Below, in pieces: positions 12,649 to 43,958 of a stretch of 43,958 bases of DNA (its first letter is position 1; every line of letters starts with the position of its first letter). The notes under the pieces were generated by a model that did no database searches, was not told the origin of the DNA, and was given only the letters and a program-made list of their open reading frames with translations. The stretch is from Clostridia bacterium (GTDB taxonomy: Bacteria > Bacillota > Clostridia > Christensenellales > UBA1242), in contig JBKSNA010000033.1 in the NCBI GenBank assembly GCA_046882085.1, positions 1 through 43,958 on the forward strand. The letters run 5' to 3'. A program made the translations under genes and the position numbers.

Positions 12649-13680
12649 ATGAATAATGAGATAATTATCTCAAAAGATAATCTAATAAATAATATTAAAC
12701 AAGTCAAAAAATATAATCCAAATACTCTAATATGTGCTATGGTGAAAGCTAATGCATATGGCATAGGTGTAGAAAATGTGGTATCTATTATTGATAGATA
12801 TGTGGATTATTATGGAGTGGCTTGTTTTTTTGAGGCTAGACAATTACGATCGCTGACTGATAAGAAGATACTTATATTAGGTGTAGTCGACGAGATAGAT
12901 GAGGATTTCTCGTATTCATGCAATTCGATAGATGATGCATTAAAATTAATAAGTTCAAAAAAGAAAATCGATATCCATATCAAGATTAATACAGGCATGA
13001 ATCGATATGGATTCAGTAGTATAAAAGAACTACGTACAGCGCTAAAACTTATAAAAAAATCTAAACTCAACATTGAAGGAATATATACACATTTCGCGAC
13101 AGATGATAAGTATGTCAATATACAGATGAAGAAATTTCAAAAATATTTAAAAATACTAACAAAATACAAAATTTCACCTATTATCCACGCAGATAACAGC
13201 AGAGTAAATAGATCACATAATCATCATCTAGACATGGTGAGAGTTGGATTCGATCTATATAATCAAGACGATAAAATGTTTTCATCGGTGGTTAGTATCA
13301 GGTCTAAAGTGGTAGATATACGCACAGTCAGAAAAGGAGAATTAATAGGATATGATTATCGCTGTGTGGCGAGGAAAAAAGCTCGTATCGCTATCATTTC
13401 TTTAGGTTATGCAGACGGATTTGACATTCGATATATCGGCATGGAGATTTTGGTCAAAAATGAAAGTTGTAGAGTGCTAAATGTGTGTATGGATTGTTTT
13501 ATGCTGGATATAGGTGGTTTGGATATTAAAAAAGGAGATGATATTGTGATTCTAGATCATATCAACTCCCTTATTAAATATTCTGACTATTCCAAGACTA
13601 GTCCATATCAAGTGATGATTAATTTCTCGCACATTAGAGCGGGATTATCTTCTATCTCCACGAATAGCGAATATGAATAA
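12649..13680 (+). CDS. alr: alanine racemase
   Basis: PLP-lysine motif VKANAYGIG, plus IHIKINTGMNRYGF, EGIYTHFATDD and LGYADGF. Confidence 0.9.
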   Translation: MNNEIIISKDNLINNIKQVKKYNPNTLICAMVKANAYGIGVENVVSIIDRYVDYYGVACFFEARQLRSLTDKKILILGVVDEIDEDFSYSCNSIDDALKLISSKKKIDIHIKINTGMNRYGFSSIKELRTALKLIKKSKLNIEGIYTHFATDDKYVNIQMKKFQKYLKILTKYKISPIIHADNSRVNRSHNHHLDMVRVGFDLYNQDDKMFSSVVSIRSKVVDIRTVRKGELIGYDYRCVARKKARIAIISLGYADGFDIRYIGMEILVKNESCRVLNVCMDCFMLDIGGLDIKKGDDIVILDHINSLIKYSDYSKTSPYQVMINFSHIRAGLSSISTNSEYE

Positions 13681-14370
13681 TACTAGTCTTAGTAATGATA
13701 ATATAGATGTTACTAGTGCTGCTACATATGTCCATGCTGCGGCATTTAGTACTTTTTTAACACCTTCGGCTTCTTCAGTATCCATCTCTGCAGTGTATAC
13801 AAGCATTTTATAGGCACGTTTACTAGCGTTTAGTTCGATTGGCAATGTGATAAGGCAAAATACAATATTCAATGCATATATTCCTATGCCTAAATAAATC
13901 AATATATCTGCACCTGTGGTATAATATGACATTTCTAATATGAATCCTAAGATGATCAAAGGCCACACAAAATATCCTAAGAAATTGATTGTTGGTACGA
14001 GGACCTTTCTTAGTTTGATAGGTCCATATTTTTCTTTGTGTTGAAATACATGACCAATTTCATGCGCGGCTACACCGATGGCTGCGATAGTATTTTGATT
14101 GTATACAGATTCAGAGAGAGAAATAGTGTCAGTAGTTGGATTATAATTGTCAGTCAGTTCTCCATTAATATGTTGGATCTTGGTATTAATGCAACCGCCA
14201 CCATCTAACATATATCGAGCTACTTCTCTAGCAGTCTTGCCATGCTTGGTCTGTATAGTATTGTATTGATTAAAAGTAGTCTTCACCTTAGTCTGCGCCC
14301 AAACTCCAAGTGCAATACCGGGAATCATCACGAATCCTAATATATAATATAATAAGTATAAATCAAACAT
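13645..14370 (-). CDS. YugP-type membrane zinc metallopeptidase
   Basis: N-terminal TM, HEIGH zinc motif (AAHEIGHVFQH), C-terminal TM helices. RBS AGGAGA before the ATG. Confidence 0.8.
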   Translation of the reverse strand: MFDLYLLYYILGFVMIPGIALGVWAQTKVKTTFNQYNTIQTKHGKTAREVARYMLDGGGCINTKIQHINGELTDNYNPTTDTISLSESVYNQNTIAAIGVAAHEIGHVFQHKEKYGPIKLRKVLVPTINFLGYFVWPLIILGFILEMSYYTTGADILIYLGIGIYALNIVFCLITLPIELNASKRAYKMLVYTAEMDTEEAEGVKKVLNAAAWTYVAALVTSILSLLRLVLFIFAIRGDRR

Positions 14371-14599
14371 ATTATCTCCTAATAATTATTATATTACTTA
14401 GCTTGTGCATTATTGTCAACAAAAAAATCAAAAACAAAACAATATTTATTATTACAAATAATTAAATTTAAATAAAATTAATATAGAAAATTCAATTTTA
14501 CTCTATAAAATAGTGCAAAATAGCAATTTACAAAAAATAAAAAAATTTATAAAAAATCAAAAAAAATATCGAAAAATATTAGTAATTAATTATTCTTTG

Positions 14600-14608
14600 T
14601 GTTATAAT
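14600..14608 (+). promoter_or_regulatory. extended -10 promoter element of the AT-hook protein gene
   Basis: TGtTATAAT at 14600-14608. RBS AAGGGG lies 6 nt before ATG 14652. Preceded by phased A-tracts at 14532-14576. Confidence 0.5.
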
Positions 14609-14651
14609 AACTTTATAGAAAATTCCGTTATGGAGATTTCAAGGGGTTAAT

Positions 14652-17165
14652 ATGTATAATTTTTTTAAAGATATTCACAATTTCTTTATATCTCTAACTA
14701 TTCCTTTAGGACGTACTGAGATATTCGTGATTTTTGGTGGATTCTTCTTAGCTACTATATTGTGCGTATTGATATTGACAGCACGAGCATATGAGTCTAG
14801 ATTGATCAAGGCTATTGATATGTTCAATAATTATTTCATCGATAATGCACAGATTAATGAAGATAATTTGGTAGCGTTTAATAATAAGATGAAGTCTAAG
14901 AAGGTGCCTAAGCAATTAAGAAAACAATGGCAACAATTTGTATTATATCGTGAGAATAATGCTAGTCATTATATGTCCTTCGAGAACTGTGTGTCTAATC
15001 CAATTAGAAATAGTAGTTTCAAGATTGATATCAAAGTAATGAATATCATTGCATACATTACTGCATCTCTAAGTTTCTTATTGACAATGTATTGTGAAGA
15101 TATCAGTTTCTTGTATACTTTGCAACAAGCTATTATTACTCCGGTAATTATTCTATTACTTAATTATCTTGTAACCATATTCTTGGATCTAAGACATAAT
15201 GCTATTGTGAGCGATTTGTATCAAAATTATCAATATTTTGAAGTAAACATCGATAAGGCAACAAAGACTCTACCTGATTATGTAGACTATGAAGTATTGT
15301 TCGATAAGAATGAGATTAAGCGTGGTATTCCTATTCTTTATGCATATTTGCAAAAACGTGCTGAAGAAGAGCAACGCGAATTAGAGCGCGCTAGATTAAA
15401 GAATATTGAACATGAGAAATTTAGCTTTGATGAAGCAGGCGTGGCTGGATCACTAGTATTAGAGAGAGCGATGCAAGAGGCTGAGAACTACATAGCAGAG
15501 CGTAAGAAGTATAATCAAGATACTGAGCAGATCAATACAGATATTACTCAGGAAGATATGAATTATCGTGAGATTACTAAAGAATACAATAGACAAATGC
15601 AAGTTAGTAAAGAGTCGTTCGCTAACTACAAAGCGCAACTAGAAGAAGCATCATCTAGTATTGAGGCGAACTATCTCAAAAAACAACAACAACAAGAATT
15701 GGATCGTCAGAGAAATCTAGAGAGAGAATTTGATACTGCTACTGAACGACACAAGAAGGTAATTCAATCATATCAATCAGAATTAGATACTGTAGACAAA
15801 TTCCGTGCAGAGAGTAGAAAGAATCTAGAGTCTGCTATGATGAGTGAGTTCAGTTCTTATAGTAGTAAAGTTTATGACGAAGCTAAAAAGCAAGCTGAGT
15901 TGAAGCAAAAAGAAAAATTTGACAAACTAAAAGCTAATATTAAAGAATTAGAAGAAAGAATTGTTAGTAAAGATCATGAATTAGAACATATCTATGCTAA
16001 GCATCAAGAATTGACTGAAGCATTAGAAAATAGCGGAGAATTAAGTGCGGTACAAGATATGATGAATCAACAATCTTATGTAGCACCTACTCCAACATAC
16101 GAAGAGCCACAAGACAATGGTGAACAACCATTAGAATATGTGCCAGAGTATGAAGATGTGAATTACGAAGAACCTGCTAATCAAGAGTCTGAAACTTTTA
16201 ACTATGATACAAATGAAGAAGAAAGTTTCGATTTTGAACCAATTTCAGAGCAATTTGCAGAAACTAACAACACTGAAACAGAAGAAACATTCAATTATGA
16301 GCCGATTGAGGAAGAAGAGAAATTTGATTATGAACCTGAGAATCTTGAGTCTGAAGACAATATAGAATCAGAAGAAGAAATCAAATTCAACTACGAACCA
16401 ATCGAAGAAGAATTGACTGATTTAGACACTGAGCCAGAACAAGAAGCTGATGAAGATTTCGAGCCAATCAAAGACGATGAAGAAGGTTATATCAATCCAT
16501 ACTTAGAGCCTATAAAACAAGAAGAAACTAAGGTCGATGACTCCACCGACCAAGAGAATGAAAGCATCGAATCAGGGGAAACAATAGATGTGATTATAGC
16601 TCCTAAGAAGAAGGCTGGTAGACCTAGAAAGATCGTAGATCCAGAGACTATTAAACCTAAGAGAAGCGTAGGTCGTCCTAAGAAACTAGTGGACAATGAG
16701 CCAAAACAAAAGAAAAAAGCAGGAAGACCTAGAAAGGTAGAAATAGTAGATGCTGAACCTAAGAAAAAAGTAGGCAGACCTAAGAAAGAAACAGTTGAGA
16801 TCGTAGACACTCCTAAGAAGGCTGGTAGACCTAAGAAAGTGGTAGTATCAGAGCAACCGATGAAGAAAAAAGCAGGTCGTCCTAAGAAAGTAGTGGATAC
16901 TACAGAGACTACCGAGAAGCGTCCTGTAGGTCGTCCTAAGAAGGTCGTAAAGCGTGGAGTAGGTCGTCCAAGAAAAGAGAAGATCGAAACAACTAAGCGT
17001 CCTGTAGGTAGACCAAAGAAGTCAGACAGCATTGCTAAAAATGATCATGTAGATATTGATCTATATCTTCAAGAGATTGATAAGGCGATCGCTAACGAAA
17101 ATGCGGTAATCGAAAAAGCTCGTAAAGAACTTGAGAAAAAGGCTAAAATCAAAACTAAAAAGTAA
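14652..17165 (+). CDS. membrane-anchored coiled-coil protein with acidic repeats and nine C-terminal AT-hook-like GRP repeats
   Basis: TM segments near residues 22-44 and 130-180, then a long charged coiled coil. F-N-Y-E-P-I-E-E-E type acidic repeats at about nt 16195-16500. Nine copies of [KR]x[AV]GRP[KR]K at about nt 16600-17025. Confidence 0.8.
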   Translation: MYNFFKDIHNFFISLTIPLGRTEIFVIFGGFFLATILCVLILTARAYESRLIKAIDMFNNYFIDNAQINEDNLVAFNNKMKSKKVPKQLRKQWQQFVLYRENNASHYMSFENCVSNPIRNSSFKIDIKVMNIIAYITASLSFLLTMYCEDISFLYTLQQAIITPVIILLLNYLVTIFLDLRHNAIVSDLYQNYQYFEVNIDKATKTLPDYVDYEVLFDKNEIKRGIPILYAYLQKRAEEEQRELERARLKNIEHEKFSFDEAGVAGSLVLERAMQEAENYIAERKKYNQDTEQINTDITQEDMNYREITKEYNRQMQVSKESFANYKAQLEEASSSIEANYLKKQQQQELDRQRNLEREFDTATERHKKVIQSYQSELDTVDKFRAESRKNLESAMMSEFSSYSSKVYDEAKKQAELKQKEKFDKLKANIKELEERIVSKDHELEHIYAKHQELTEALENSGELSAVQDMMNQQSYVAPTPTYEEPQDNGEQPLEYVPEYEDVNYEEPANQESETFNYDTNEEESFDFEPISEQFAETNNTETEETFNYEPIEEEEKFDYEPENLESEDNIESEEEIKFNYEPIEEELTDLDTEPEQEADEDFEPIKDDEEGYINPYLEPIKQEETKVDDSTDQENESIESGETIDVIIAPKKKAGRPRKIVDPETIKPKRSVGRPKKLVDNEPKQKKKAGRPRKVEIVDAEPKKKVGRPKKETVEIVDTPKKAGRPKKVVVSEQPMKKKAGRPKKVVDTTETTEKRPVGRPKKVVKRGVGRPRKEKIETTKRPVGRPKKSDSIAKNDHVDIDLYLQEIDKAIANENAVIEKARKELEKKAKIKTKK

Positions 17166-35987: not shown

Positions 35988-37121
35988 ATGGTGGCGAAGA
36001 AACCTTCTGTAAGTGCTAGAACTTTTGAATGTAATATGAGAAATTTTAGATTACATATTCAGCCACATATTGGAAATATGAAAGTTTATGAGGTGGACAC
36101 GTTTGTAATTCAAAAGTTGGTTAACAAATTAGCTGAAGAAGGTTTGAGTGTTGATGTGATTAAGAAAAAGAAACATCTAATTAATCAATTCTTTGAGTAT
36201 GCAAAAGATAATAAATGGGTGGTAGACAATCCAACAACAAAATTGAAGATAAGATCAAAAGATAGAACGAACACAGAAGCAAAAGAAAGATACAAAGCAT
36301 TGAATCCTGAAGAAAGAGCAATATTTTTGGAAGCATTAAATAAAGACGAAGCAAACTTTATTAAACCACTTTGCATTTTGCTTATGTTTGCAGGTTTAAG
36401 AATTGGAGAGGCTTGTGCTTTGAAATGGAAAGATGTAAATTTCGAAAATAAAACATTAAAGGTTGAAAGAGGAATAACTCAGGTTGCAAAGTTTGATGAG
36501 AAAGGAAAGGTGGTTGAAAGAGTAACTGTTGTGGGAGCCACAAAAACAGCGTGTTCTGTGCGAGAAATACCAATCACAGACATTGTGGTGGAAACCTTAA
36601 AAACATGGCGTAAAAAGCAGGATTTCAAGCAAAAAATGGACCCTAGCATCAAAGTTAATCTTATAGATTCAGATGCTTTCATTTTTGCGAACGATGATGG
36701 TAGTGTTAGGACATATTCAGGGTGTAGAAAGATTTTCGGTAGATTTATTAATCGTAACAGGTTGCAAAAATACAACATTCACTTTCATGGATTAAGGCAC
36801 ACCTTTTCAAATATGCTTTTTGAAATGAACGAGAATCCAAAAGTTATTCAACAACTGCTAGGGCATCGTGATGTGAAAACGACAATCACAGTGTACAATT
36901 CTGTTGATAGTGAGTATGTAAGACAAGCAACTGACAAATTGAATGATAAAATTAAAAATGAGGAAATATTTGCTCAGAATAAACAGATGGAAGATGAAAA
37001 GCAAGAACAAAAGAAAAGTGTTATTTCAGAAATGAGCGATGAAGAGTTTGATGATATGTTTTTAGATTTATTGGAAGAACGCAAACGAAGAAAACAAAAA
37101 CAAGATGATATGGAGATGTGA
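35988..37121 (+). CDS. tyrosine site-specific recombinase / integrase with a short N-terminus and acidic C-terminal tail
   Basis: Catalytic residues in GLRIGEACALKWKDV (R), HGLRHTF (HxxR) and LGHRDVKTTITVY (H, Y). The core-binding domain starts near residue 10, so an arm-binding domain seems absent. Confidence 0.85.
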   Translation: MVAKKPSVSARTFECNMRNFRLHIQPHIGNMKVYEVDTFVIQKLVNKLAEEGLSVDVIKKKKHLINQFFEYAKDNKWVVDNPTTKLKIRSKDRTNTEAKERYKALNPEERAIFLEALNKDEANFIKPLCILLMFAGLRIGEACALKWKDVNFENKTLKVERGITQVAKFDEKGKVVERVTVVGATKTACSVREIPITDIVVETLKTWRKKQDFKQKMDPSIKVNLIDSDAFIFANDDGSVRTYSGCRKIFGRFINRNRLQKYNIHFHGLRHTFSNMLFEMNENPKVIQQLLGHRDVKTTITVYNSVDSEYVRQATDKLNDKIKNEEIFAQNKQMEDEKQEQKKSVISEMSDEEFDDMFLDLLEERKRRKQKQDDMEM

Positions 37122-37240
37122 AAATATTAAATATTGTCATATTTAAGACGATTTTTAAAATCCTTGTGTTAATATGCAAACAAAAAAGGTTGGAGAGTAA
37201 TTTCTTCAACCTTGCAATTTTTAAGGAGGTATGATATAAT

Positions 37241-37825
37241 ATGGGTGTACTTAACGATGTTATTCAAATTGATAAAGATGGAAATGTAAAATATAATCAA
37301 TGGATAGAATGGGATCACTTTCTAATTCCTAATAATATAGAGTGGTTAAGAGAGATTTTAAGAAATTTAATGGCTGTTTTTGGTCATTGCAAAAAATGTA
37401 CTGCTTTGGATGGTTGTTATTTGGTTAAAGGTAATATGCCTGAACAACCACTTCATGAACATTGCGATTGTAAAAGCAAAAATATCGCATTTTCGAAGGT
37501 AAAGTCAAAAGCATTTGCGGAATGTGATATTAGAAAGTTTACAGAATATGTTTTTACAAATATAGAAGATTCAAAAGGCAAAATTGAGATTTTTAAAGAA
37601 ATGGGTTACTCAAAGGAAGATTCTTCATATTTACAACAAGAATTTTGTAAACAGGCTCTTGAACAATATTTGTTAGGAAATTATAAGTTAAAAACTTTAG
37701 ATGCAAAAGGTCAAAGACTTGCTATTCCAACTACACTAAAAGAAATTACTTTTTATAGTGGTTGGATGTTGTGTCCAGAAGGTAAAATTAGAAATACAAC
37801 ACCGTTTGGAGGAAGAATTAAATGA
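37241..37825 (+). CDS. MuF-type zinc-ribbon fused to a DUF6883-like C-terminal domain
   Basis: CKKC-x17-PLHEHCDC resembles the MuF/SPP1-gp7 C-terminal ...PPLHPNCRC motif. The C-terminal half (IRKFTEYVF..SKGK.EIFKEMGYS...GQRLAIP...SGWM..GKIRNTTPF) resembles DUF6883. RBS AAGGAGG. Confidence 0.6.
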   Translation: MGVLNDVIQIDKDGNVKYNQWIEWDHFLIPNNIEWLREILRNLMAVFGHCKKCTALDGCYLVKGNMPEQPLHEHCDCKSKNIAFSKVKSKAFAECDIRKFTEYVFTNIEDSKGKIEIFKEMGYSKEDSSYLQQEFCKQALEQYLLGNYKLKTLDAKGQRLAIPTTLKEITFYSGWMLCPEGKIRNTTPFGGRIK

Positions 37826-38307
37826 AAAAATACGATTTAGTTAAATTAATTAATGAATCACCATATTTAAAATACAACTTAACAAAAAATGCTCATGGTA
37901 TTATTATAAATTCATATATAGACACAATGGATGTAATGTTTTTCAATCCTCAAAATTATGGAGATTACATTATTGTTAAAATAAAAGCGCAAGATTTGAT
38001 TTTAGAGAAAGAAAAATTACCTAATAAGGTGATTAAAGAATTTGAGCAAAAGAAAGAAAAAATCATTTCAAAAGCTAAAGAAATCTTACAAACTTTGCCT
38101 GTAAAAGCTTATAATATAGTAGAATTAATTGTGGAAGATGAAAAATATACTAAGTTTGGAATACATAAAGGTGATCGAGGCTGTGTGATGGATGACATTG
38201 CTGTTGATAATTGTGTTGAAGTTGATTTTTCAGGAATTGATGAAGATAGAAATTATTATGGGGATTGTATTTCTGTAAATATTAAAGATTTAAAAGTGAT
38301 TAAATAA
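37822..38307 (+). CDS. protein with two tandem DUF4926-like modules
   Basis: YDLVKLINESPYLKY...VMFFNP...IKAQDLIL and YNIVELIVEDEKYTKFGIHKGDRGCVM...VEVDF...NIKDLKVI. ATGA overlap with the upstream stop. Confidence 0.55.
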   Translation: MKKYDLVKLINESPYLKYNLTKNAHGIIINSYIDTMDVMFFNPQNYGDYIIVKIKAQDLILEKEKLPNKVIKEFEQKKEKIISKAKEILQTLPVKAYNIVELIVEDEKYTKFGIHKGDRGCVMDDIAVDNCVEVDFSGIDEDRNYYGDCISVNIKDLKVIK

Positions 38308-38310
38308 AAC

Positions 38311-38547
38311 ATGAAATATTTAGATTTGGTAGAATTGATAAAAGAAAAACCAGCATATAAAAAAGCTGGGGTTAAAGTTGGCGACTTCGGGGCTGTCATG
38401 AGCAAACAACCAATTAATGGAAAATGGCAAGTTGTATTTTCTGAATTTTATACAGGAAAGGACACCGCTGATATTATGGTTGCCGAAGAAGATTTACAAG
38501 TGCATGAATTTGTTCCTAAAGACAAATATCCAAAGAAAAAACAATAA
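38311..38547 (+). CDS. single DUF4926-like module protein
   Basis: LDLVELIKEKPAYKKAGVKVGDFGAVM...WQVVFSEF...VAEEDLQV. Starts 3 nt after the upstream stop. Confidence 0.55.
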   Translation: MKYLDLVELIKEKPAYKKAGVKVGDFGAVMSKQPINGKWQVVFSEFYTGKDTADIMVAEEDLQVHEFVPKDKYPKKKQ

Positions 38548-38552
38548 AAAGG

Positions 38553-38705
38553 CTGACAGTAATTGACAGTAGTTTGACAGCAGTTGACACCATTTAGGGT
38601 GTTTTTAGGTAGTTTTAAAGAGATTTAGACCGAAAGTTGAGTTGATCAATTTTCGGTCTTTTTTCATTAAATTTTTTGACAGCAGTTGCACCTAAATTTG
38701 ACAGT
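38553..38705 (+). repeat. cluster of TTGACAG-type direct repeats
   Basis: cTGACAGTAA TTGACAGTAG TTTGACAGCAG TTGACACC at 38553-38591, then TTGACAGCAGTTGCACC at 38676-38692 and TTGACAGT at 38698-38705. Confidence 0.7.
38627..38665 (+). terminator. rho-independent terminator of the 37241-38547 operon
   Basis: AGACCGAAA/TTTCGGTCT stem plus T6. Confidence 0.7.
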
Positions 38706-38740
38706 AAATGTTTTTTTTGTGGAAAAGATGTGGGAAATTT

Positions 38741-38791
38741 TAAAAACAAAAAACCCTTGAAAACATCTATAAAATAGGCGATTTTCAAGGG
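38741..38791 (-). terminator. terminator downstream of the tRNA-Thr fragment (likely the original tRNA terminator)
   Basis: CCCTTGAAAA/TTTTCAAGGG stem with an 18-nt loop, followed by a T-run on the minus strand. Confidence 0.6.
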
Positions 38792-38800
38792 TTGAGATTT

Positions 38801-38846
38801 TGGAGCTGATGACGGGGATCGAACCCGTGGCATCTGCCTTACCAAG
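38801..38846 (-). pseudogene. 3' fragment (about 46 nt: anticodon loop to CCA) of a tRNA-Thr(GGU)-like gene; att-type scar
   Basis: Reverse complement cTTGGTAAGGCAGATGCCACGGGTTCGATCCCCGTCATCAGCTCCA has an anticodon loop, T-arm ACGGG/TTCGATC/CCCGT, acceptor 3' strand and CCA. There is no matching 5' acceptor strand (GCTGATG) upstream. Confidence 0.65.
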
Positions 38847-38882
38847 TATTGAATTTTACCCAAGCAAGACTCGAACTCAAAG

Positions 38883-38914
38883 CACAGGAAACCATTATCT
38901 TTCCTGTGTTTTTT
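38883..38914 (+). terminator. orphan plus-strand hairpin terminator just inside the island edge
   Basis: CACAGGAAA/TTTCCTGTG stem plus T6. No plus-strand gene lies upstream of it. Confidence 0.5.
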
Positions 38915-38931
38915 CTTGCTTACAAAACTTC

Positions 38932-38975
38932 CAATTGTTGTCAATTTTTAAAAATTTGACAACAGTTGACAACAA
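38932..38975. repeat. TTGACAAC boxes in palindromic and tandem arrangement
   Basis: TTGTTGTCAATTTTTAAAAATTTGACAACAGTTGACAACAA. A further inverted copy GTGTTGTCAA lies at about 39053-39062. Confidence 0.65.
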
Positions 38976-39115
38976 AAGCCCCATTTTAACCCACCAAAAC
39001 ACCTAATTTTTCCACCTAAAATCATCTAAACTTGCCTAAAACCGAACATCAAGTGTTGTCAAAAATTTTAGGGAACAAATTAGAGCTTAATATTTCAAAA
39101 AGTTCCCTAAAAGAA

Positions 39116-39141
39116 AAAGACAATGAGTTAATTCATTGCCT
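39116..39141 (-). terminator. probable terminator of the XRE gene
   Basis: GACAATGA/TCATTGCC stem (7/8 paired), then TCTTTTTCTT on the minus strand. Confidence 0.45.
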
Positions 39142-39381
39142 TTAATATACATCTTCAGTTCCGTTAAAATAATCTCTTGCAAAAAATTCTTCAAGAGTTA
39201 TATTTGCTCCTGAACAAATTTTCTTAATTGTGATTACTTTTGGGCATTTGCTTTTGCCAGACATAAAATCAAAAATAGTTGATGGTGTTAAATTAGAATT
39301 TAAACATAATGCAGTCAATGTTATTTTGTTTGTTTCAACTATTTCGTTTATTCTTTTTCTTATTGCTTCATCAATATTCAT
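39142..39381 (-). CDS. XRE-family helix-turn-helix transcriptional regulator
   Basis: 79 aa. ITLTALCLNSNLTPSTIFDFMSGKS is a typical HTH_3 pattern. Divergent from the SLOG-like gene. Confidence 0.75.
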   Translation of the reverse strand: MNIDEAIRKRINEIVETNKITLTALCLNSNLTPSTIFDFMSGKSKCPKVITIKKICSGANITLEEFFARDYFNGTEDVY

Positions 39382-39383
39382 AA

Positions 39384-39510
39384 TTACTATACTCCGTAAC
39401 GATGTTTCGTAATTATTTTACTTTTATCTGTAAAATTAGTCTTACGGAGTTTCGTAATAATGATTGCCATATTAAATATATTTTATTATAATATTTACGG
39501 AGTATCGTAA
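39384..39510. promoter_or_regulatory. four copies of a 16-nt TTACGGAGTnTnGTAA box (candidate operator overlapping SD sites)
   Basis: Copies at 39384-39399 (minus), 39397-39412 (13/16 match), 39442-39457 and 39495-39510. Three of them lie exactly 2 nt before an ATG: the XRE gene, a 16-codon uORF at 39460-39510, and the SLOG-like gene. TATAAT at 39487-39492. Confidence 0.6.
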
Positions 39511-39512
39511 AT

Positions 39513-40070
39513 ATGAAAAATGAAGTTTGTTCTTTCTTTGGTCATAGAAAAATTGAGATAACCGGGGAACTTAAACAAAAAGTAAAAGAAGTAATTAAAG
39601 ATTTGATTGTTAACCACAATGTTTTTACTTTCTTGTTTGGTAGTCGTAGTGATTTTGACTACCTTTGTCATTTAGTGGTTACAGAACTAAAAGAGAAATA
39701 TCCAAGCATTATAAGAAAATGCTACACTTGCAGAAGTGAAACCTGTACATTAGAAAACGAACGAGAACATTGGGAAGAGCTATATAGTCATTTCAGAAAA
39801 GAAAAAGTTACACTACTTGGTGTTGAAGAAGAAGTGGAACACAAAACAAAATACACATCTGGCAAAGCAAGTTATGTAGAACGAAATCAAGCTATGATAA
39901 ACGATAGCGATTATTGTGTCTTTTATTATGATGAAAACTATCAACCTGAAATGCGAAAATACTCCAAACGAAGCATTGGCTATTACCAACCCAAATCCGG
40001 CACAGCCCTTGCCCATGTCTACGCCAAACAAAAGAAAAAGATAATTATTAATTGTTATATAAAAATTTAA
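39513..40070 (+). CDS. SLOG-fold (YpsA/DUF1273/YoqJ-like) protein
   Basis: N-terminal CSFFGHR motif, then FLFGSRSDFDYLC, with later acidic/Gly positions typical of this nucleotide-binding Rossmannoid family. Confidence 0.55.
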   Translation: MKNEVCSFFGHRKIEITGELKQKVKEVIKDLIVNHNVFTFLFGSRSDFDYLCHLVVTELKEKYPSIIRKCYTCRSETCTLENEREHWEELYSHFRKEKVTLLGVEEEVEHKTKYTSGKASYVERNQAMINDSDYCVFYYDENYQPEMRKYSKRSIGYYQPKSGTALAHVYAKQKKKIIINCYIKI

Positions 40071-40135
40071 AAAACTTTTTTAAATATAGCGAAATTTTTT
40101 ATAAAATATGTTATACTCGTTATAGAGGAAAAATT

Positions 40136-40984
40136 ATGGAACAAAAGAATTACGGAAAAACAATTGAATTATTCTTTGTAAATGGAACTTCAGATGGTAT
40201 TGTTACAGCTGAGTTAAGTAATTGGAGTGGAAGATCAGTCAAAATTCCACGCATTAATGTTAAAGATTATGACCGTGGCGGAATTTGTAATGTTGGTGTA
40301 TATCTTTTATATTGTGTAGAAGATGATGGATCTGAAAAAATTTACGTGGGTGAAGCTGAAAATGTTTCAGACAGATTAAAACAACATATCAGAGACTATC
40401 AATCAGGTAAAGAATCTTTTTATTGGAATCAGGCAGTTGTTTTTACAGATGATAGATTAGATAAAGCTGAAATTAGATATATTGAAAATAAATTGGCCGA
40501 TATTATTAGTAGTAATGATAAATCCAAACTTTTAACCAAAAGCACATATAAAAATACTGCATTAAAAGATTCTCAAATAGCGAAAGCAGAAGAATTTATA
40601 GACAATATAAAAACTTTATTGGGTGCACTTGGTTTAAAAACTCTTAATGAAGTTCCAAAGGCAACTGCAGAAACAATATATTTTTATTGTAAAGGAACAG
40701 ATTCTTCTGCAACAGGATTCTTGTCTAACGAAGGTTTTACGGTAATGAAAGGATCTATAATTTCATCTAAAACAGCTAACTCGTTTAAAGGTGCTGCTTA
40801 TTATAAGTTAAGAGAACGACTTATAGAAGATCAAGTAATTGTAGATGGAGAATTTACAAAAGATTACGAATTTAAAGCTCCATCTGCGGCATCATCTGTA
40901 GTTCTTGGAAGAGCGTCAAATGGAAAGGATAAGTGGAAAACACAAAACGGCGTTAAGTTCGCTGATATTAAATTAGAGGTTTAA
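40136..40984 (+). CDS. GIY-YIG nuclease domain protein with DUF4357-like C-terminal domain
   Basis: GVYLLYC..EKIYVGEAENVSDRLKQH..(R)YIENKL is GIY-YIG-like. The C-terminal GFTVMKGS...FKAPSAASSVVLGRASNG..WK is DUF4357-like. Start moved to ATG 40136, which has RBS AGAGGA. Confidence 0.7.
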   Translation: MEQKNYGKTIELFFVNGTSDGIVTAELSNWSGRSVKIPRINVKDYDRGGICNVGVYLLYCVEDDGSEKIYVGEAENVSDRLKQHIRDYQSGKESFYWNQAVVFTDDRLDKAEIRYIENKLADIISSNDKSKLLTKSTYKNTALKDSQIAKAEEFIDNIKTLLGALGLKTLNEVPKATAETIYFYCKGTDSSATGFLSNEGFTVMKGSIISSKTANSFKGAAYYKLRERLIEDQVIVDGEFTKDYEFKAPSAASSVVLGRASNGKDKWKTQNGVKFADIKLEV

Positions 40985-40988
40985 TAAT

Positions 40989-41327
40989 ATGTATTTAACA
41001 CCAGATGAAATGTGTTCTATAAATTCAGCATCTGCTGGAACTGAACTTTTTAAAAAGAAAGAACAAGAACAAAGAGAAAAACAGTTATTAATAAACAATT
41101 CAAATAAACAAGTTGAATTACTGCAAGGACAGATTAATATTTTAAAGCAGCAATTAGAAGAAGTAAAAGAAGAGAAAAATAAAATAAACGAATTATATGA
41201 ATTAAAAAATAAAGAATTAGAAGATAGTAGAAAAGAACTAAAGAAAAGCAAGGTATACAATACGGTAATGTTGGGAATTGCAATCGCTTCATTAGTTGCA
41301 ACTATTTTAATTGGAATATTTTTATAG
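40989..41327 (+). CDS. tail-anchored coiled-coil protein (112 aa)
   Basis: Heptad-rich LLQGQINILKQQLEEVKEEKNKINELYELKNKELEDSRKELKK, then the C-terminal TM MLGIAIASLVATILIGIFL. Confidence 0.6.
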   Translation: MYLTPDEMCSINSASAGTELFKKKEQEQREKQLLINNSNKQVELLQGQINILKQQLEEVKEEKNKINELYELKNKELEDSRKELKKSKVYNTVMLGIAIASLVATILIGIFL

Positions 41328-41346
41328 AATAAGTTAGGAGGAATAT

Positions 41347-43818
41347 ATGGCTGTTAAGAAAAGTGAGTTATACAGCAAATTATGGGCGAGTTGTGATGAG
41401 TTAAGGGGCGGAATGGACGCTTCTCAATATAAAGACTATGTTTTAACATTACTATTTGTAAAATATGTTAGTGATAAATTTAAAGGACAACCATTTGCAG
41501 ATATTGAGATTCCAGAAGGTGCAAGTTTTGATGATATGGTAGCTCTGAAAAGAGATGCACACCTTGGCGAAGAAATGGATAAGATTATTGCTAAACTAGC
41601 AGAATCTAACAATTTAAGAAATGTTATTGATAATGCAAAATTTAACGATGAAGAAAAAATGGGCAAGGGAGAAGAAAAAAGAGATAGATTATCTAATCTT
41701 ATCGATATTTTTGATAATCCAGATTTAAATTTTAAAGACAATAGAACTGATGGTGACGATATCATTGGCGATGCTTATGAATACCTTATGAAGAACTTTG
41801 CTAAAGACTCTGGTAAAAGCAAAGGGCAATTCTACACCCCTGCAGAAGTATCTAGAATTTTAGCAAAAATTATTGGAATAAAAAATGCTAAAAGTTCTGA
41901 TACGCTATATGACTGTGCATGTGGTAGTGGATCGCTACTTATCAAAGCAGCAAGTGAATGTGATAATAAGGTTACTATATATGGACAAGAAAAAGATGGT
42001 GCAACAGCTGGTATGGCAAAGATGAATATGGTGTTGCATAATCTTTCTACTGCAACAATTCATAAAGATAATACAATGGCAGCACCTTTCTTTAAAGAGC
42101 AAGATAGCAAAGGAAATAATATTGATAATAAACTTAAACAATTTAATTATATTGTTGCAAATCCACCTTTTTCTCTTAAGAATTGGAAGAATGGTGTTGA
42201 TACTGAAAAATATGGCATATATCAAGGTTATAGTACCCCACCAGAAAAATGTGGTGACTATGCTTGGCTTTTACATTGTATAAAATCTTTGAAACAAACA
42301 GGTACAGGTGCCATTATCCTTCCACATGGTGTTTTATTTAGAGGAAATGCAGAAGCAGAAATCAGAAAAGAAATTATTGATAGAGGTTTAATTAAGGCAA
42401 TAATTGGTTTGCCAGCAAATTTATTCTTTGGAACTGGAATTCCTGCTTGTATTATAGTATTTGACAAAAAAGATGCTAATGAAAGAAAGGGCATTTTTAT
42501 GATAGATGCAAGTAAAGGATTTGTTAAAGATGGTCCAAAAAACAAATTAAGAGAACAAGACATTAAGAAGATTGTAGATGCTTATGAAGGACAATTAAAT
42601 CTCCCTAAATTTTCTAGATTTGTTGAAAATGAAGAAATTAAAGTTAAAAACGAGTACAACTTAAATATCCCAAGATATATTGATACATCTGAAGTTGAAG
42701 ATTTACAAAGTATTGAAGCTCATTTACATGGAGGAATCCCTATGGAAGATGTGGACTCTCTTAATAAATATTGGGAACAATTCTCTAATCTAAAAGAAAA
42801 GTTGTTTTCAAAATTAAGGGATGGTTTTTACAAATTAAATATCGATAAAGATGAAGTAAGAAAAACAATTTATAATGATGAACAATTTGCTTCTTATTCT
42901 AAAAAAGTTGATAAAGCATTTTCTAACTGGAAAGCTTTTGTTGATGAAAAATTAAGGGCAATGAATAAGAATGTTAAACCGAAAGAATTAATAATTGAAC
43001 TTTCCAACAAGTTAATTTCAGAATTTGAAACGGTTGAACTTATTGATAAATATGATGTTTATGAAGTTTTACTTGAGTATTGGCAAGAAGTAATGCTTGA
43101 CGATACTTCTTTGATTTGTTCGGATAATGGTTGGAATGAAGCAAAAGAAACAGAATTAGAATTTGCAAAACCTAAAAAGGCAAAAGAAGGCGAAGAAAAG
43201 AAACCTAAAAAAGAACCTAAAGTAACTGGCTGGCATGGTAAAATTATTAGCAGAGAGCTTCTTGCTAGTGTTTATTTTAGTGATGCAGTTTTAGCAATAG
43301 AAACTGCAAATAATGCCGTTGCAGAACAAGAAGGATTATTACAATCATTGATAGAAGAAAATAGTGATGATGATTCTATTTTTAATGAGTGTATGAACGA
43401 CAAAAATGAAGTTACAACAAAATTAGTTGAAACTAAATTTAAGGACCTTAAAAAACTTAATCAAATTGATGATGACTATAATCTTTTGAAACAATACATC
43501 GACATCAATGATGTTATTAAACAATTAAACAAAGATTTAAAAACTTTAAATGCTGGATTAGAAGAAGATTTAAAAAAGAAATACCCTACTTTAACTATTG
43601 AAGAAATTAAGGATATCCTTATCAATAAAAAATGGTTGAAAGTTGTTTATGAAGGTATAGATAACCTTTACACAACAATTTCTCATAACATTGCTAATCG
43701 AATTGTGGAATTAGTTGTAAGATATGAAAACACTCTTTCAGAAATAGAAAACAATGTTAATTCTTACGAAGCAAAAGTAAAAGAACATCTTAAAAGGATG
43801 GGATTTGAGTTATGTTAA
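41347..43818 (+). CDS. hsdM: type I restriction-modification methyltransferase subunit HsdM with a ~370-aa C-terminal extension
   Basis: HsdM_N pattern (LWASCDELRGGMDASQYKDYVLTLLFVKY), FYTP, DCACGSGSLL (motif I), NPPF (motif IV). The catalytic core ends near residue 450 of 823. RBS AGGAGG. Confidence 0.9.
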   Translation: MAVKKSELYSKLWASCDELRGGMDASQYKDYVLTLLFVKYVSDKFKGQPFADIEIPEGASFDDMVALKRDAHLGEEMDKIIAKLAESNNLRNVIDNAKFNDEEKMGKGEEKRDRLSNLIDIFDNPDLNFKDNRTDGDDIIGDAYEYLMKNFAKDSGKSKGQFYTPAEVSRILAKIIGIKNAKSSDTLYDCACGSGSLLIKAASECDNKVTIYGQEKDGATAGMAKMNMVLHNLSTATIHKDNTMAAPFFKEQDSKGNNIDNKLKQFNYIVANPPFSLKNWKNGVDTEKYGIYQGYSTPPEKCGDYAWLLHCIKSLKQTGTGAIILPHGVLFRGNAEAEIRKEIIDRGLIKAIIGLPANLFFGTGIPACIIVFDKKDANERKGIFMIDASKGFVKDGPKNKLREQDIKKIVDAYEGQLNLPKFSRFVENEEIKVKNEYNLNIPRYIDTSEVEDLQSIEAHLHGGIPMEDVDSLNKYWEQFSNLKEKLFSKLRDGFYKLNIDKDEVRKTIYNDEQFASYSKKVDKAFSNWKAFVDEKLRAMNKNVKPKELIIELSNKLISEFETVELIDKYDVYEVLLEYWQEVMLDDTSLICSDNGWNEAKETELEFAKPKKAKEGEEKKPKKEPKVTGWHGKIISRELLASVYFSDAVLAIETANNAVAEQEGLLQSLIEENSDDDSIFNECMNDKNEVTTKLVETKFKDLKKLNQIDDDYNLLKQYIDINDVIKQLNKDLKTLNAGLEEDLKKKYPTLTIEEIKDILINKKWLKVVYEGIDNLYTTISHNIANRIVELVVRYENTLSEIENNVNSYEAKVKEHLKRMGFELC

Positions 43819-43958
43819 AAAATTCGGAAATAGGATATATTCCTAATGAATGGAAATGCGAAAAATTGTTAACAAATGGAGAGATTCTTTCGGGATTGAC
43901 ATATGCACCACATAATATCGTAGATAATGGATTACTTGTGTTAAGATCTTCCAATATA
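43812..43958 (+). CDS. hsdS: type I R-M specificity subunit HsdS (N-terminal part, runs off the window)
   Basis: ATG 43812 overlaps the hsdM stop (ATGTTAA). MLKNSEIGYIPNEWKCEKL...GLLVLRSSNI is a typical HsdS N-terminus. Confidence 0.75.
   Translation, partial: MLKNSEIGYIPNEWKCEKLLTNGEILSGLTYAPHNIVDNGLLVLRSSNI

Follow-up and report, generated by a model that had tools for sequence, protein, structure and literature searches.

Integrative elements that target tRNA genes possess a tyrosine integrase and a small Xis-like gene beside an intact tRNA gene, a direct repeat of the tRNA 3' part at the far end and a variable cargo bay, and those with defence cargo can bear an ImmR/cI-like repressor at one end, as in the immR-Pxis switch of ICEBs1. 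In the present study, an element of this kind was analysed in a stretch of 43,958 nucleotides from a Clostridia bacterium (hereafter the window), which is the whole of contig C33 of a 791-kb assembly (58 contigs, roughly 90% complete) and has a G+C content of about 30%. Towards its right end, three plus-strand open reading frames (ORFs) at 39513-41327, encoding a YpsA-type SLOG protein (ORF1), a GIY-YIG nuclease with a DUF4357 domain (ORF2) and a tail-anchored coiled-coil membrane protein (ORF3), sit between a minus-strand XRE repressor gene and hsdM of a type I restriction-modification (R-M) system. Where homologues are named, they belong to uncultured gut Clostridia or Christensenellales, for example Candidatus Caccovivens.

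Overproduction of YpsA (DUF1273), the described protein closest to ORF1, blocks FtsZ assembly and cell division in Bacillus subtilis and Staphylococcus aureus, and the conserved ligand-binding motif GxD/E of YpsA corresponds to G53/E55 in B. subtilis (Brzozowski et al., 2019, PMC6459960). YpsA belongs to the SLOG superfamily (Burroughs et al., 2015). Viral YpsA-like SLOG domains have been proposed to degrade signals of the cyclic ADP-ribose (cADPR) type (PMC9503650). ORF2 matches PDC-S14 of the PADLOC database. The PDC sets of this database collect genes that occur embedded in BREX, DISARM and type I R-M loci ('guilt by embedding'; Payne et al., 2024 preprint, 10.1101/2024.01.29.577857). The text of this source preprint does not mention PDC-S14 by name, and no reported defence phenotype for PDC-S14 was found in the papers naming it, which only list it. 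DUF4357 is otherwise fused to GmrSD, McrB-like and T5orf172 proteins (PMC4619093; PMC11090510) and has been linked to RAMA, a reader domain of N6-methyladenine (m6A) (PMC4738411).

The present island shares with tRNA-targeting elements the integrase and Xis-like gene beside the intact tRNA, the direct repeat (here 46 nt) at the far end, the variable cargo bay, a divergent XRE repressor at the element end and, in related elements, a MobL relaxase. It differs from them in that the first repressor-controlled gene is SLOG rather than xis or transfer genes, that terminators divide the cargo into separate transcription units and that the closest relative of the window's element has no relaxase. Judging from comparative sequence, we hold with good confidence, for the two statements jointly, that the DNA from 38801 to the contig end belongs to an island of about 17 kb with tRNA-Thr(GGT) as its integration site, of which it forms the distal part, and that 39513-41327 consists of three separable units joined as a mosaic in front of a type I R-M operon.

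The modular exchange was observed in DNA comparisons with loci of other genomes (designated L with a number), whose neighbouring genes were called by simple ORF picking and BLAST or hidden Markov model (HMM) searches. Homology to L004 covers 39528-43958, beginning near the SLOG start codon, and a different helix-turn-helix (HTH) gene and promoter precede it. Homology to L002 covers 40072-43820, beginning one base after the SLOG stop codon, with an AbiEii gene upstream instead of SLOG, and homology to L003 covers 41053-43867, beginning inside the membrane gene, with SLOG and the nuclease both missing. L006 matches only XRE and SLOG (39062-40052), and L006, L012, L043 and L048 have only SLOG, with or without XRE, in common with the window. 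The homology blocks thus end at gene borders, which points to three exchange units, namely XRE with SLOG, the leader with PDC-S14, and the membrane gene with hsdM and the genes behind it.

A sequence-only reading of the window had joined the putative sensor, the nuclease and the membrane protein into one module under the repressor. A single XRE-regulated anti-phage system, in which a SLOG sensor would act with a GIY-YIG/DUF4357 effector and a membrane effector, agrees with the co-orientation and tight packing of the genes (ORF3 starts 5 nt past the last base of the ORF2 stop codon, hsdM 20 nt past ORF3, and no terminator-like site was found within 39513-41822), with the intact trio in L004, L005, L219 and L221 and with an analogous gene order in L048. 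However, the intact copies are 96-98% identical and therefore represent the same element, so that synteny of the trio was confined to near-identical element copies. Of the SLOG orthologues in 20 family genomes, none had the nuclease, the membrane gene or the present hsdM next to it, and SLOG or the membrane gene was present at only 1 of the 76 PDC-S14 loci, a 98%-identical copy of the same element. PDC-S14 is most commonly found immediately after hsdR (16/76 loci), without SLOG nearby. Moreover, the homology breakpoints lie between genes; PDC-S14, the membrane gene and hsdM stand behind AbiEii in L002, and the membrane gene and hsdM occur without SLOG or nuclease in L003. By synteny, a single system appears largely refuted, and we regard it as very improbable. 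A PADLOC check of the trio, for which the sequence-only reading had known no described system, returned ORF2 as an already listed single-gene candidate. The earlier interpretation is thus partly supported, as the three co-oriented ORFs are present as it described them (ORF listing) and do lie inside an integrated island adjoining type I R-M genes, where the attachment (att) scar and hsdM were both seen.

Several points weigh against a mosaic of separable units on a tRNA-Thr island. The order of SLOG, a DUF4357 nuclease (T5orf172, non-orthologous) and type I R-M genes is repeated in L048, and this analogous order could hint at more than chance. As no terminator follows SLOG, transcription under XRE control could continue into PDC-S14, the membrane gene and hsdM here, and derepression may also raise the expression of downstream cargo in this element; the cargo does not depend on the SLOG cassette, since L002 and L003 have no SLOG upstream. 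Furthermore, the contig stops within the element, whose integrase end is deduced from the 96-98% identical relative L219, and the MobL relaxase is absent from both L219 and the whole assembly. Because near-identical L219 is without MobL, the term 'mobilizable' fits the related elements only.

Table 1. Features of the island between its distal border and the end of the window
Feature	Position	Strand	Remarks
tRNA-Thr(GGT) 3' part, 46 nt, anticodon loop to CCA	38801..38846	-	att scar; left (distal) island end
XRE repressor, Cro/C1-type HTH, 79 aa	39142..39381	-	HTH_26 and HTH_3 matches; divergent from SLOG
Divergent control region	39384..39512		three TTACGGAGTnTCGTAA boxes and promoter-like site
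YpsA-type SLOG protein (DUF1273), 185 aa (ORF1)	39513..40070	+	PF06908; island backbone gene, not cargo
AT-rich spacer travelling with the nuclease gene	40072..40135	+	extended -10-like TGTTATACT; ribosome-binding site AGAGGA
GIY-YIG nuclease with C-terminal DUF4357, 282 aa, PADLOC PDC-S14 (ORF2)	40136..40984	+	
Tail-anchored coiled-coil protein, 112 aa (ORF3)	40989..41327	+	unannotated R-M-embedded family
HsdM, type I methyltransferase, 823 aa	41347..43818	+	N6_Mtase E 2e-99; HsdM_N
hsdS, first 49 codons, cut at contig end	43812..43958	+	100% identical to the L004 HsdS start

XRE and SLOG form a recurring, undescribed cassette, which is the conserved divergent backbone of tRNA-Thr islands and is also found alone. 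An opposite-strand gene of 76-107 aa was located 340-530 bp upstream of SLOG in 22 of the 24 loci, and all ten upstream neighbours that were scanned encode Cro/C1 HTH proteins. Together with its TTACGGAGTnTCGTAA boxes, the window's XRE is found again (90-94% identity) beside SLOGs that are 82% (L006) and 64% (L048) identical, and SLOGs of 85-91% identity adjoin an unrelated 99-aa HTH gene (L004, L012, L043 and L044); the most contrasting pairs are XRE at 94% with SLOG at 64% (L048) and SLOG at 90% with the unrelated HTH (L004). As the partner is exchangeable, the link between XRE and SLOG is one of transcription rather than that of a co-evolving protein pair. A type II toxin-antitoxin pair was considered for XRE and SLOG and rejected, the genes being divergent and the partners recombining independently.

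Each TTACGGAGTnTCGTAA box is an imperfect palindrome (TTACG-N6-CGTAA) that contains GGAG, and a strong promoter-like site (TTGCCA-17-TATAAT, 39464-39492) lies upstream of ORF1. The box goes with the repressor and not with SLOG, because it recurs only in loci with the same 79-aa XRE (L006 and L048). The Cro/C1-type repressor most likely binds the boxes, which overlap both start regions, and would gate its own gene as well as SLOG. A 16-codon upstream ORF (39460-39510) starts 2 nt after the middle operator-like box and stops 2 nt before the SLOG start codon. Besides a function at the DNA level, the GGAG-containing boxes could have one at the RNA level, by folding into a hairpin that covers the ribosome-binding site. 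No convincing repeats bracketing the cassette were found in the window.

The cargo recorded after SLOG comprised Hachiman with Eco47II R-M, an AAA_21 ATPase with a fused methylase, a UvrD/RQC/HRDC helicase, Dcm with HATPase_c_3 and, in L048, T5orf172-DUF4357 followed by type I R-M genes (hsdR-S-M). Stand-alone SLOG genes have ABC-F, ThyX, ThrRS, TrmA, MnmE, NrdD, S2 or the gyrase neighbourhood next to them and are often beside a tRNA gene. A single long repressor-controlled operon from SLOG to the integrase was also considered and, for L043, set aside, as terminator-like and promoter-like sites separate its cargo units.

The assignment of ORF1 to the YpsA-type SLOG proteins in the sequence-only reading held, the match to PF06908 (E 2e-8, 34.9 bits) exceeding the gathering cut-off of 27.7. 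An AlphaFold model built from 31 sequences (predicted local distance difference test score 82) gave B. subtilis YpsA (2NX2, E 2e-7) as the top Foldseek match, followed by DprA (including that of Helicobacter pylori), molybdenum cofactor (MoCo) carrier, LOG and ThsA SLOG folds, together with phage 'DprA-like' and cpYpsA SLOG proteins; a PDB sequence search with ORF1 returned nothing useful. Like YpsA, the protein has an N-terminal strand followed by G-H-R (GY[KR] in YpsA), a glycine-rich loop after strand 2 and the block RN...D.D..(I/V)..YD. It differs from YpsA in being encoded on a mobile island with a divergent Cro/C1 repressor and without a gpsB neighbour, in having an extra conserved set of Cys and His residues (C6, H11, C52/H53, C73 and C78) and in the acidic position of the GxD/E motif, as G43, S44, S46 and F48 are invariant after strand 2 and D47 and D49 vary as D/N/E/Q. 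The protein fits the SLOG branch of 'diverse conflict-system contexts' rather than YpsA proper. The homologues make up more than 2000 clusters, and orthologues (E<=1e-40) occur in about 27 of the 151 family genomes, some of which have several copies. Their distribution is patchy, and their identity does not follow taxonomy, reaching 91% in other genera, whereas within the same genus it is 53-54% or the gene is absent. Sequenced phages and plasmids have almost none, with one weak match in each collection.

Two other roles for SLOG were weighed. XRE and SLOG might constitute an addiction or abortive-infection module of their own, in which a YpsA-like inhibitor of growth or division is silenced until the element or the cell is perturbed. 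The division block caused by overproduced YpsA, the persistence of solitary cassettes between housekeeping genes of 0.8-1.3-Mb genomes, the several copies in some genomes and the regular pairing of SLOG with a repressor-type neighbour all speak for such a module. However, XRE and SLOG are divergent and not co-transcribed, the acidic residue of the YpsA motif varies, and no GpsB-like gene was seen in about 30 SLOG loci, in which the constant neighbour was the Cro/C1 HTH gene. In addition, a specific protein-protein antidote relation is unlikely because HTH and SLOG recombine independently. We therefore treat an addiction module as a tentative alternative, possible but on the doubtful side.

Alternatively, SLOG might serve the element as an anti-defence factor that degrades cADPR-type immune signals, or as a DNA-entry factor with DprA-like binding of single-stranded DNA. 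The proposal made for viral YpsA-like domains and the fold matches to H. pylori DprA, phage 'DprA-like' and cpYpsA SLOG proteins are in line with these functions, as is the MobL relaxase of related elements, which implies that these would enter cells as single strands. Against them, sequenced phages and plasmids almost never carry the gene, stand-alone chromosomal copies stay intact, no catalytic residues are assignable and SLOG and the relaxase end of the element are far apart, so that an anti-defence or entry role seems improbable. Of the biochemical roles, which we infer on top of the observed gene content, exchange pattern, island borders and associations, the one preferred for SLOG, though weakly, is that of a repressor-gated factor that would arrest growth or cell division, or process nucleotides, in the maintenance or establishment of the element. 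It would then not be a sensor for the neighbouring nuclease.

ORF2 had been listed as 40052-40984 (TTG start, 310 aa), though its true start is the ATG at 40136, because 29 homologues all begin at MEQKNYGK or M..K.FGK. The GIY-YIG and DUF4357 domains recognized in the sequence-only reading were recovered (PF01541, E 4e-5; PF14267, E 5e-17), and PADLOC PDLC04925 (PDC-S14) matched residues 6-279 of 282 with an E value of 1.2e-81; a further match was phrog_12629 (E 2e-55). The catalytic residues Y56 (GVY56), Y70/G72 (Y70-V-G72), R80, H84 and E117 are invariant in 30 sequences, and N118 is not. Neither a PDB sequence search with ORF2 (nothing useful) nor a whole-chain fold search of the multi-domain model against the PDB (nothing, best E 0.09) added to this assignment.

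Relatives of PDC-S14 are encoded by 415 stretches of a species-level genome collection, in several phyla. A type I component was found within 7 kb of PDC-S14 in at least 29 of the 76 loci (one per species with a full-length homologue), a lower bound from a BLAST-based call, which agrees with the earlier statement that genes of this architecture are frequent in R-M loci. The window's copy thus resembles PDC-S14 in its full-length HMM match, its two domains and its place in or beside type I R-M genes, and differs from the commonest arrangement, directly after hsdR, in standing at the operon 5' end before hsdM. Matches to RAMA were weak (E 7.5e-5, below the cut-off, for the L048 protein; 3 of 30 PDC-S14 homologues at E<=0.1), so that the identity of DUF4357 with this m6A reader is a weak lead only. 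DUF4357 probably reads DNA or its modification state, and PDC-S14 would act as a second, independent nuclease layer beside R-M, expressed from its own leader with a predicted promoter.

As the sequence-only reading had proposed, ORF3 combines a long heptad-rich centre with a C-terminal hydrophobic helix, whose strongest 19-mer (mean 2.64) starts at residue 93. ORF3 had no match in Pfam and only weak sub-threshold matches in PADLOC, and a PDB search with the family profile returned generic coiled coils only. A word-based search yielded ten close homologues, and the close homologues sit directly before an 823-aa hsdM in three otherwise different contexts. In a full HMMER search of 1.84 billion cluster representatives, the family comprised 98 clusters, nearly all of 100-140 aa. 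Twelve aligned members have in common an N-terminal NSA motif, a coiled-coil core with the sequence NYxKL(K/N)ELY, a basic junction of the form K(K/S)S.x(F/Y)N and the C-terminal helix. One match (G247/L172) had no ORF at its position and was set aside as probably spurious.

The family is embedded in R-M operons of two types (I and III) in at least seven lineages, the window's included. A homologue lies between type III mod and res in a TIR/DUF6680 island of another Clostridia genome, one compared at class level (L171, 2575-15094), where the gene order is TIR_2, DUF5677, DUF6680, mod, membrane protein, res, Y-family polymerase (IMS), WYL-WCX and a MerR regulator. When metagenomes were scanned with a distant subgroup, 46 loci emerged, which fell into eight clusters at 80% identity; clusters rather than loci were counted because many metagenome loci are copies of one another. 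Four of the eight were in type I R-M loci, between hsdM and hsdS where the context was complete, one followed type III res, one preceded an AbiA-like reverse transcriptase-HEPN gene and two were at contig ends. In L217 (5842-8143), a homologue is directly upstream of an AbiA-like reverse transcriptase with HEPN_AbiA_CTD, outside an R-M operon. The hsdM-hsdS slot of type I loci from the human gut (L198, 5974-7012; L176, 4804-7131; L207, 4290-6240) holds the membrane protein with changing partners, namely a CAP12/Pycsar-type TIR protein, RhuM (PDC-S05), a PDC-M48 metallo-beta-lactamase pair and unknown proteins of 191 aa and 75 aa (Cys4).

Like PrrC, RloC and other type I-embedded genes, the membrane protein and PDC-S14 take up positions within R-M operons or at their head, and such slots also hold RhuM/PDC-S05, PDC-M48, CAP12-type TIR and AbiU2. 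PrrC and RloC, however, have no sequence or domain similarity to either protein, and the membrane protein has only about 110-140 aa with a coiled coil and one C-terminal transmembrane helix. Most likely, it is either a membrane effector that is embedded there but works independently, or a partner of the R-M complex at the membrane. That it represents a new family of R-M accessories working with the restriction enzyme, by tethering or as a back-up effector, is conceivable, though we would sooner doubt than expect it. For tethering, coiled-coil contacts with HsdM or HsdS would hold the restriction enzyme at the membrane where foreign DNA enters, and as a back-up, a membrane effector would be released on disablement of the R-M complex, as with PrrC.

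The island carries what would be a classical type I R-M system. PADLOC MTase_I (PDLC03027) matched HsdM over residues 1-821, and about 370 aa at the C-terminal end of HsdM form a helical extension; where the window has the membrane gene upstream of hsdM, the long relatives of HsdM at 47-59% identity have a small HTH gene (MerR/Xis-like or XRE). The rest of hsdS and hsdR, as well as MobL and a second integrase, were absent from the 58-contig assembly, and hsdM, hsdS and hsdR are all present in L219.

The tRNA-Thr fragment at the distal border has 87% identity to the tRNA-Thr that the genome itself carries on contig C9, and the elements of L043 and L044 are likewise flanked by this 46-nt sequence, which directly repeats part of an intact tRNA-Thr. 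The minus-strand orientation of the fragment implies that the element extends rightwards to an intact tRNA-Thr past the contig end. In agreement with this prediction, the near-identical element of L219 ends in an intact minus-strand tRNA-Thr(GGT). On this 18-kb contig, SLOG, PDC-S14, the membrane gene, hsdM, hsdS, HEPN_AbiU2 and hsdR are followed by a YgjP-like gene, an 83-aa Xis-like gene, the integrase, an 882-aa SMC_N/AAA_23 ATPase and the tRNA gene, and the SLOG-to-hsdM block is 96-98% identical to the window. L043 and L044 begin with the intact tRNA-Thr and contain cargo, a tyrosine integrase, an 88-aa gene, the MobL relaxase, small genes, further cargo, SLOG, HTH and the 46-nt direct repeat in this order; L144, which also has MobL, is similar. 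The tyrosine integrase and intact tRNA-Thr were thus seen in L219, L043 and L044, the window's copy being cut by the contig end, and no second copy of the att fragment was found in the window or genome. The interval from the integrase to the intact tRNA-Thr is a second cargo position, occupied in L219 by the SMC_N/AAA_23 ATPase gene (13659-16307) and in L043 (1075-2385) by a gene for a HEPN/Toprim N-terminal domain protein.

Around the scar (38552-38975), TTGACAGCAGTTGACA-type units occur as four direct copies with inverted partners and could be arm-type binding sites for integrase or Xis. The segment 38831-39065 is 88-92% conserved in L004 and L012. To the left, a tyrosine integrase (35988-37121) that is 65-66% identical to the element integrases of L043 and L044 precedes three small genes, which encode proteins of 194 aa (DUF6883-like), 161 aa and 78 aa. 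This unit (35988-38547) is a small neighbouring element that lies directly past the housekeeping genes LeuRS and GNAT and reaches up to the att scar; it resembles 'element X' of L043, and no recognisable left repeat was found for it.

As a whole, the locus is an ordinary defence island of known kind, and parts of it were already known, since PDC-S14 is catalogued and SLOG falls in a known protein family; the membrane family is unannotated. The exchange borders of this packed block fall between genes, and the locus thereby offers a caution for gene-neighbourhood reasoning, namely that genes packed tightly in one orientation behind a single visible repressor need not form one system. The element also provides a compact natural construct for testing PDC-S14. 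The R-M-embedded membrane family, the least expected part of the locus, is a modestly new lead and an inexpensive 'guilt-by-embedding' candidate, as it is outside Pfam and PADLOC yet recurrent in R-M operons. In small-genome gut Clostridia, the XRE-SLOG cassette is a landmark that shows where tRNA-targeting islands end distally, and new defence cargo can be found in the slot behind it.

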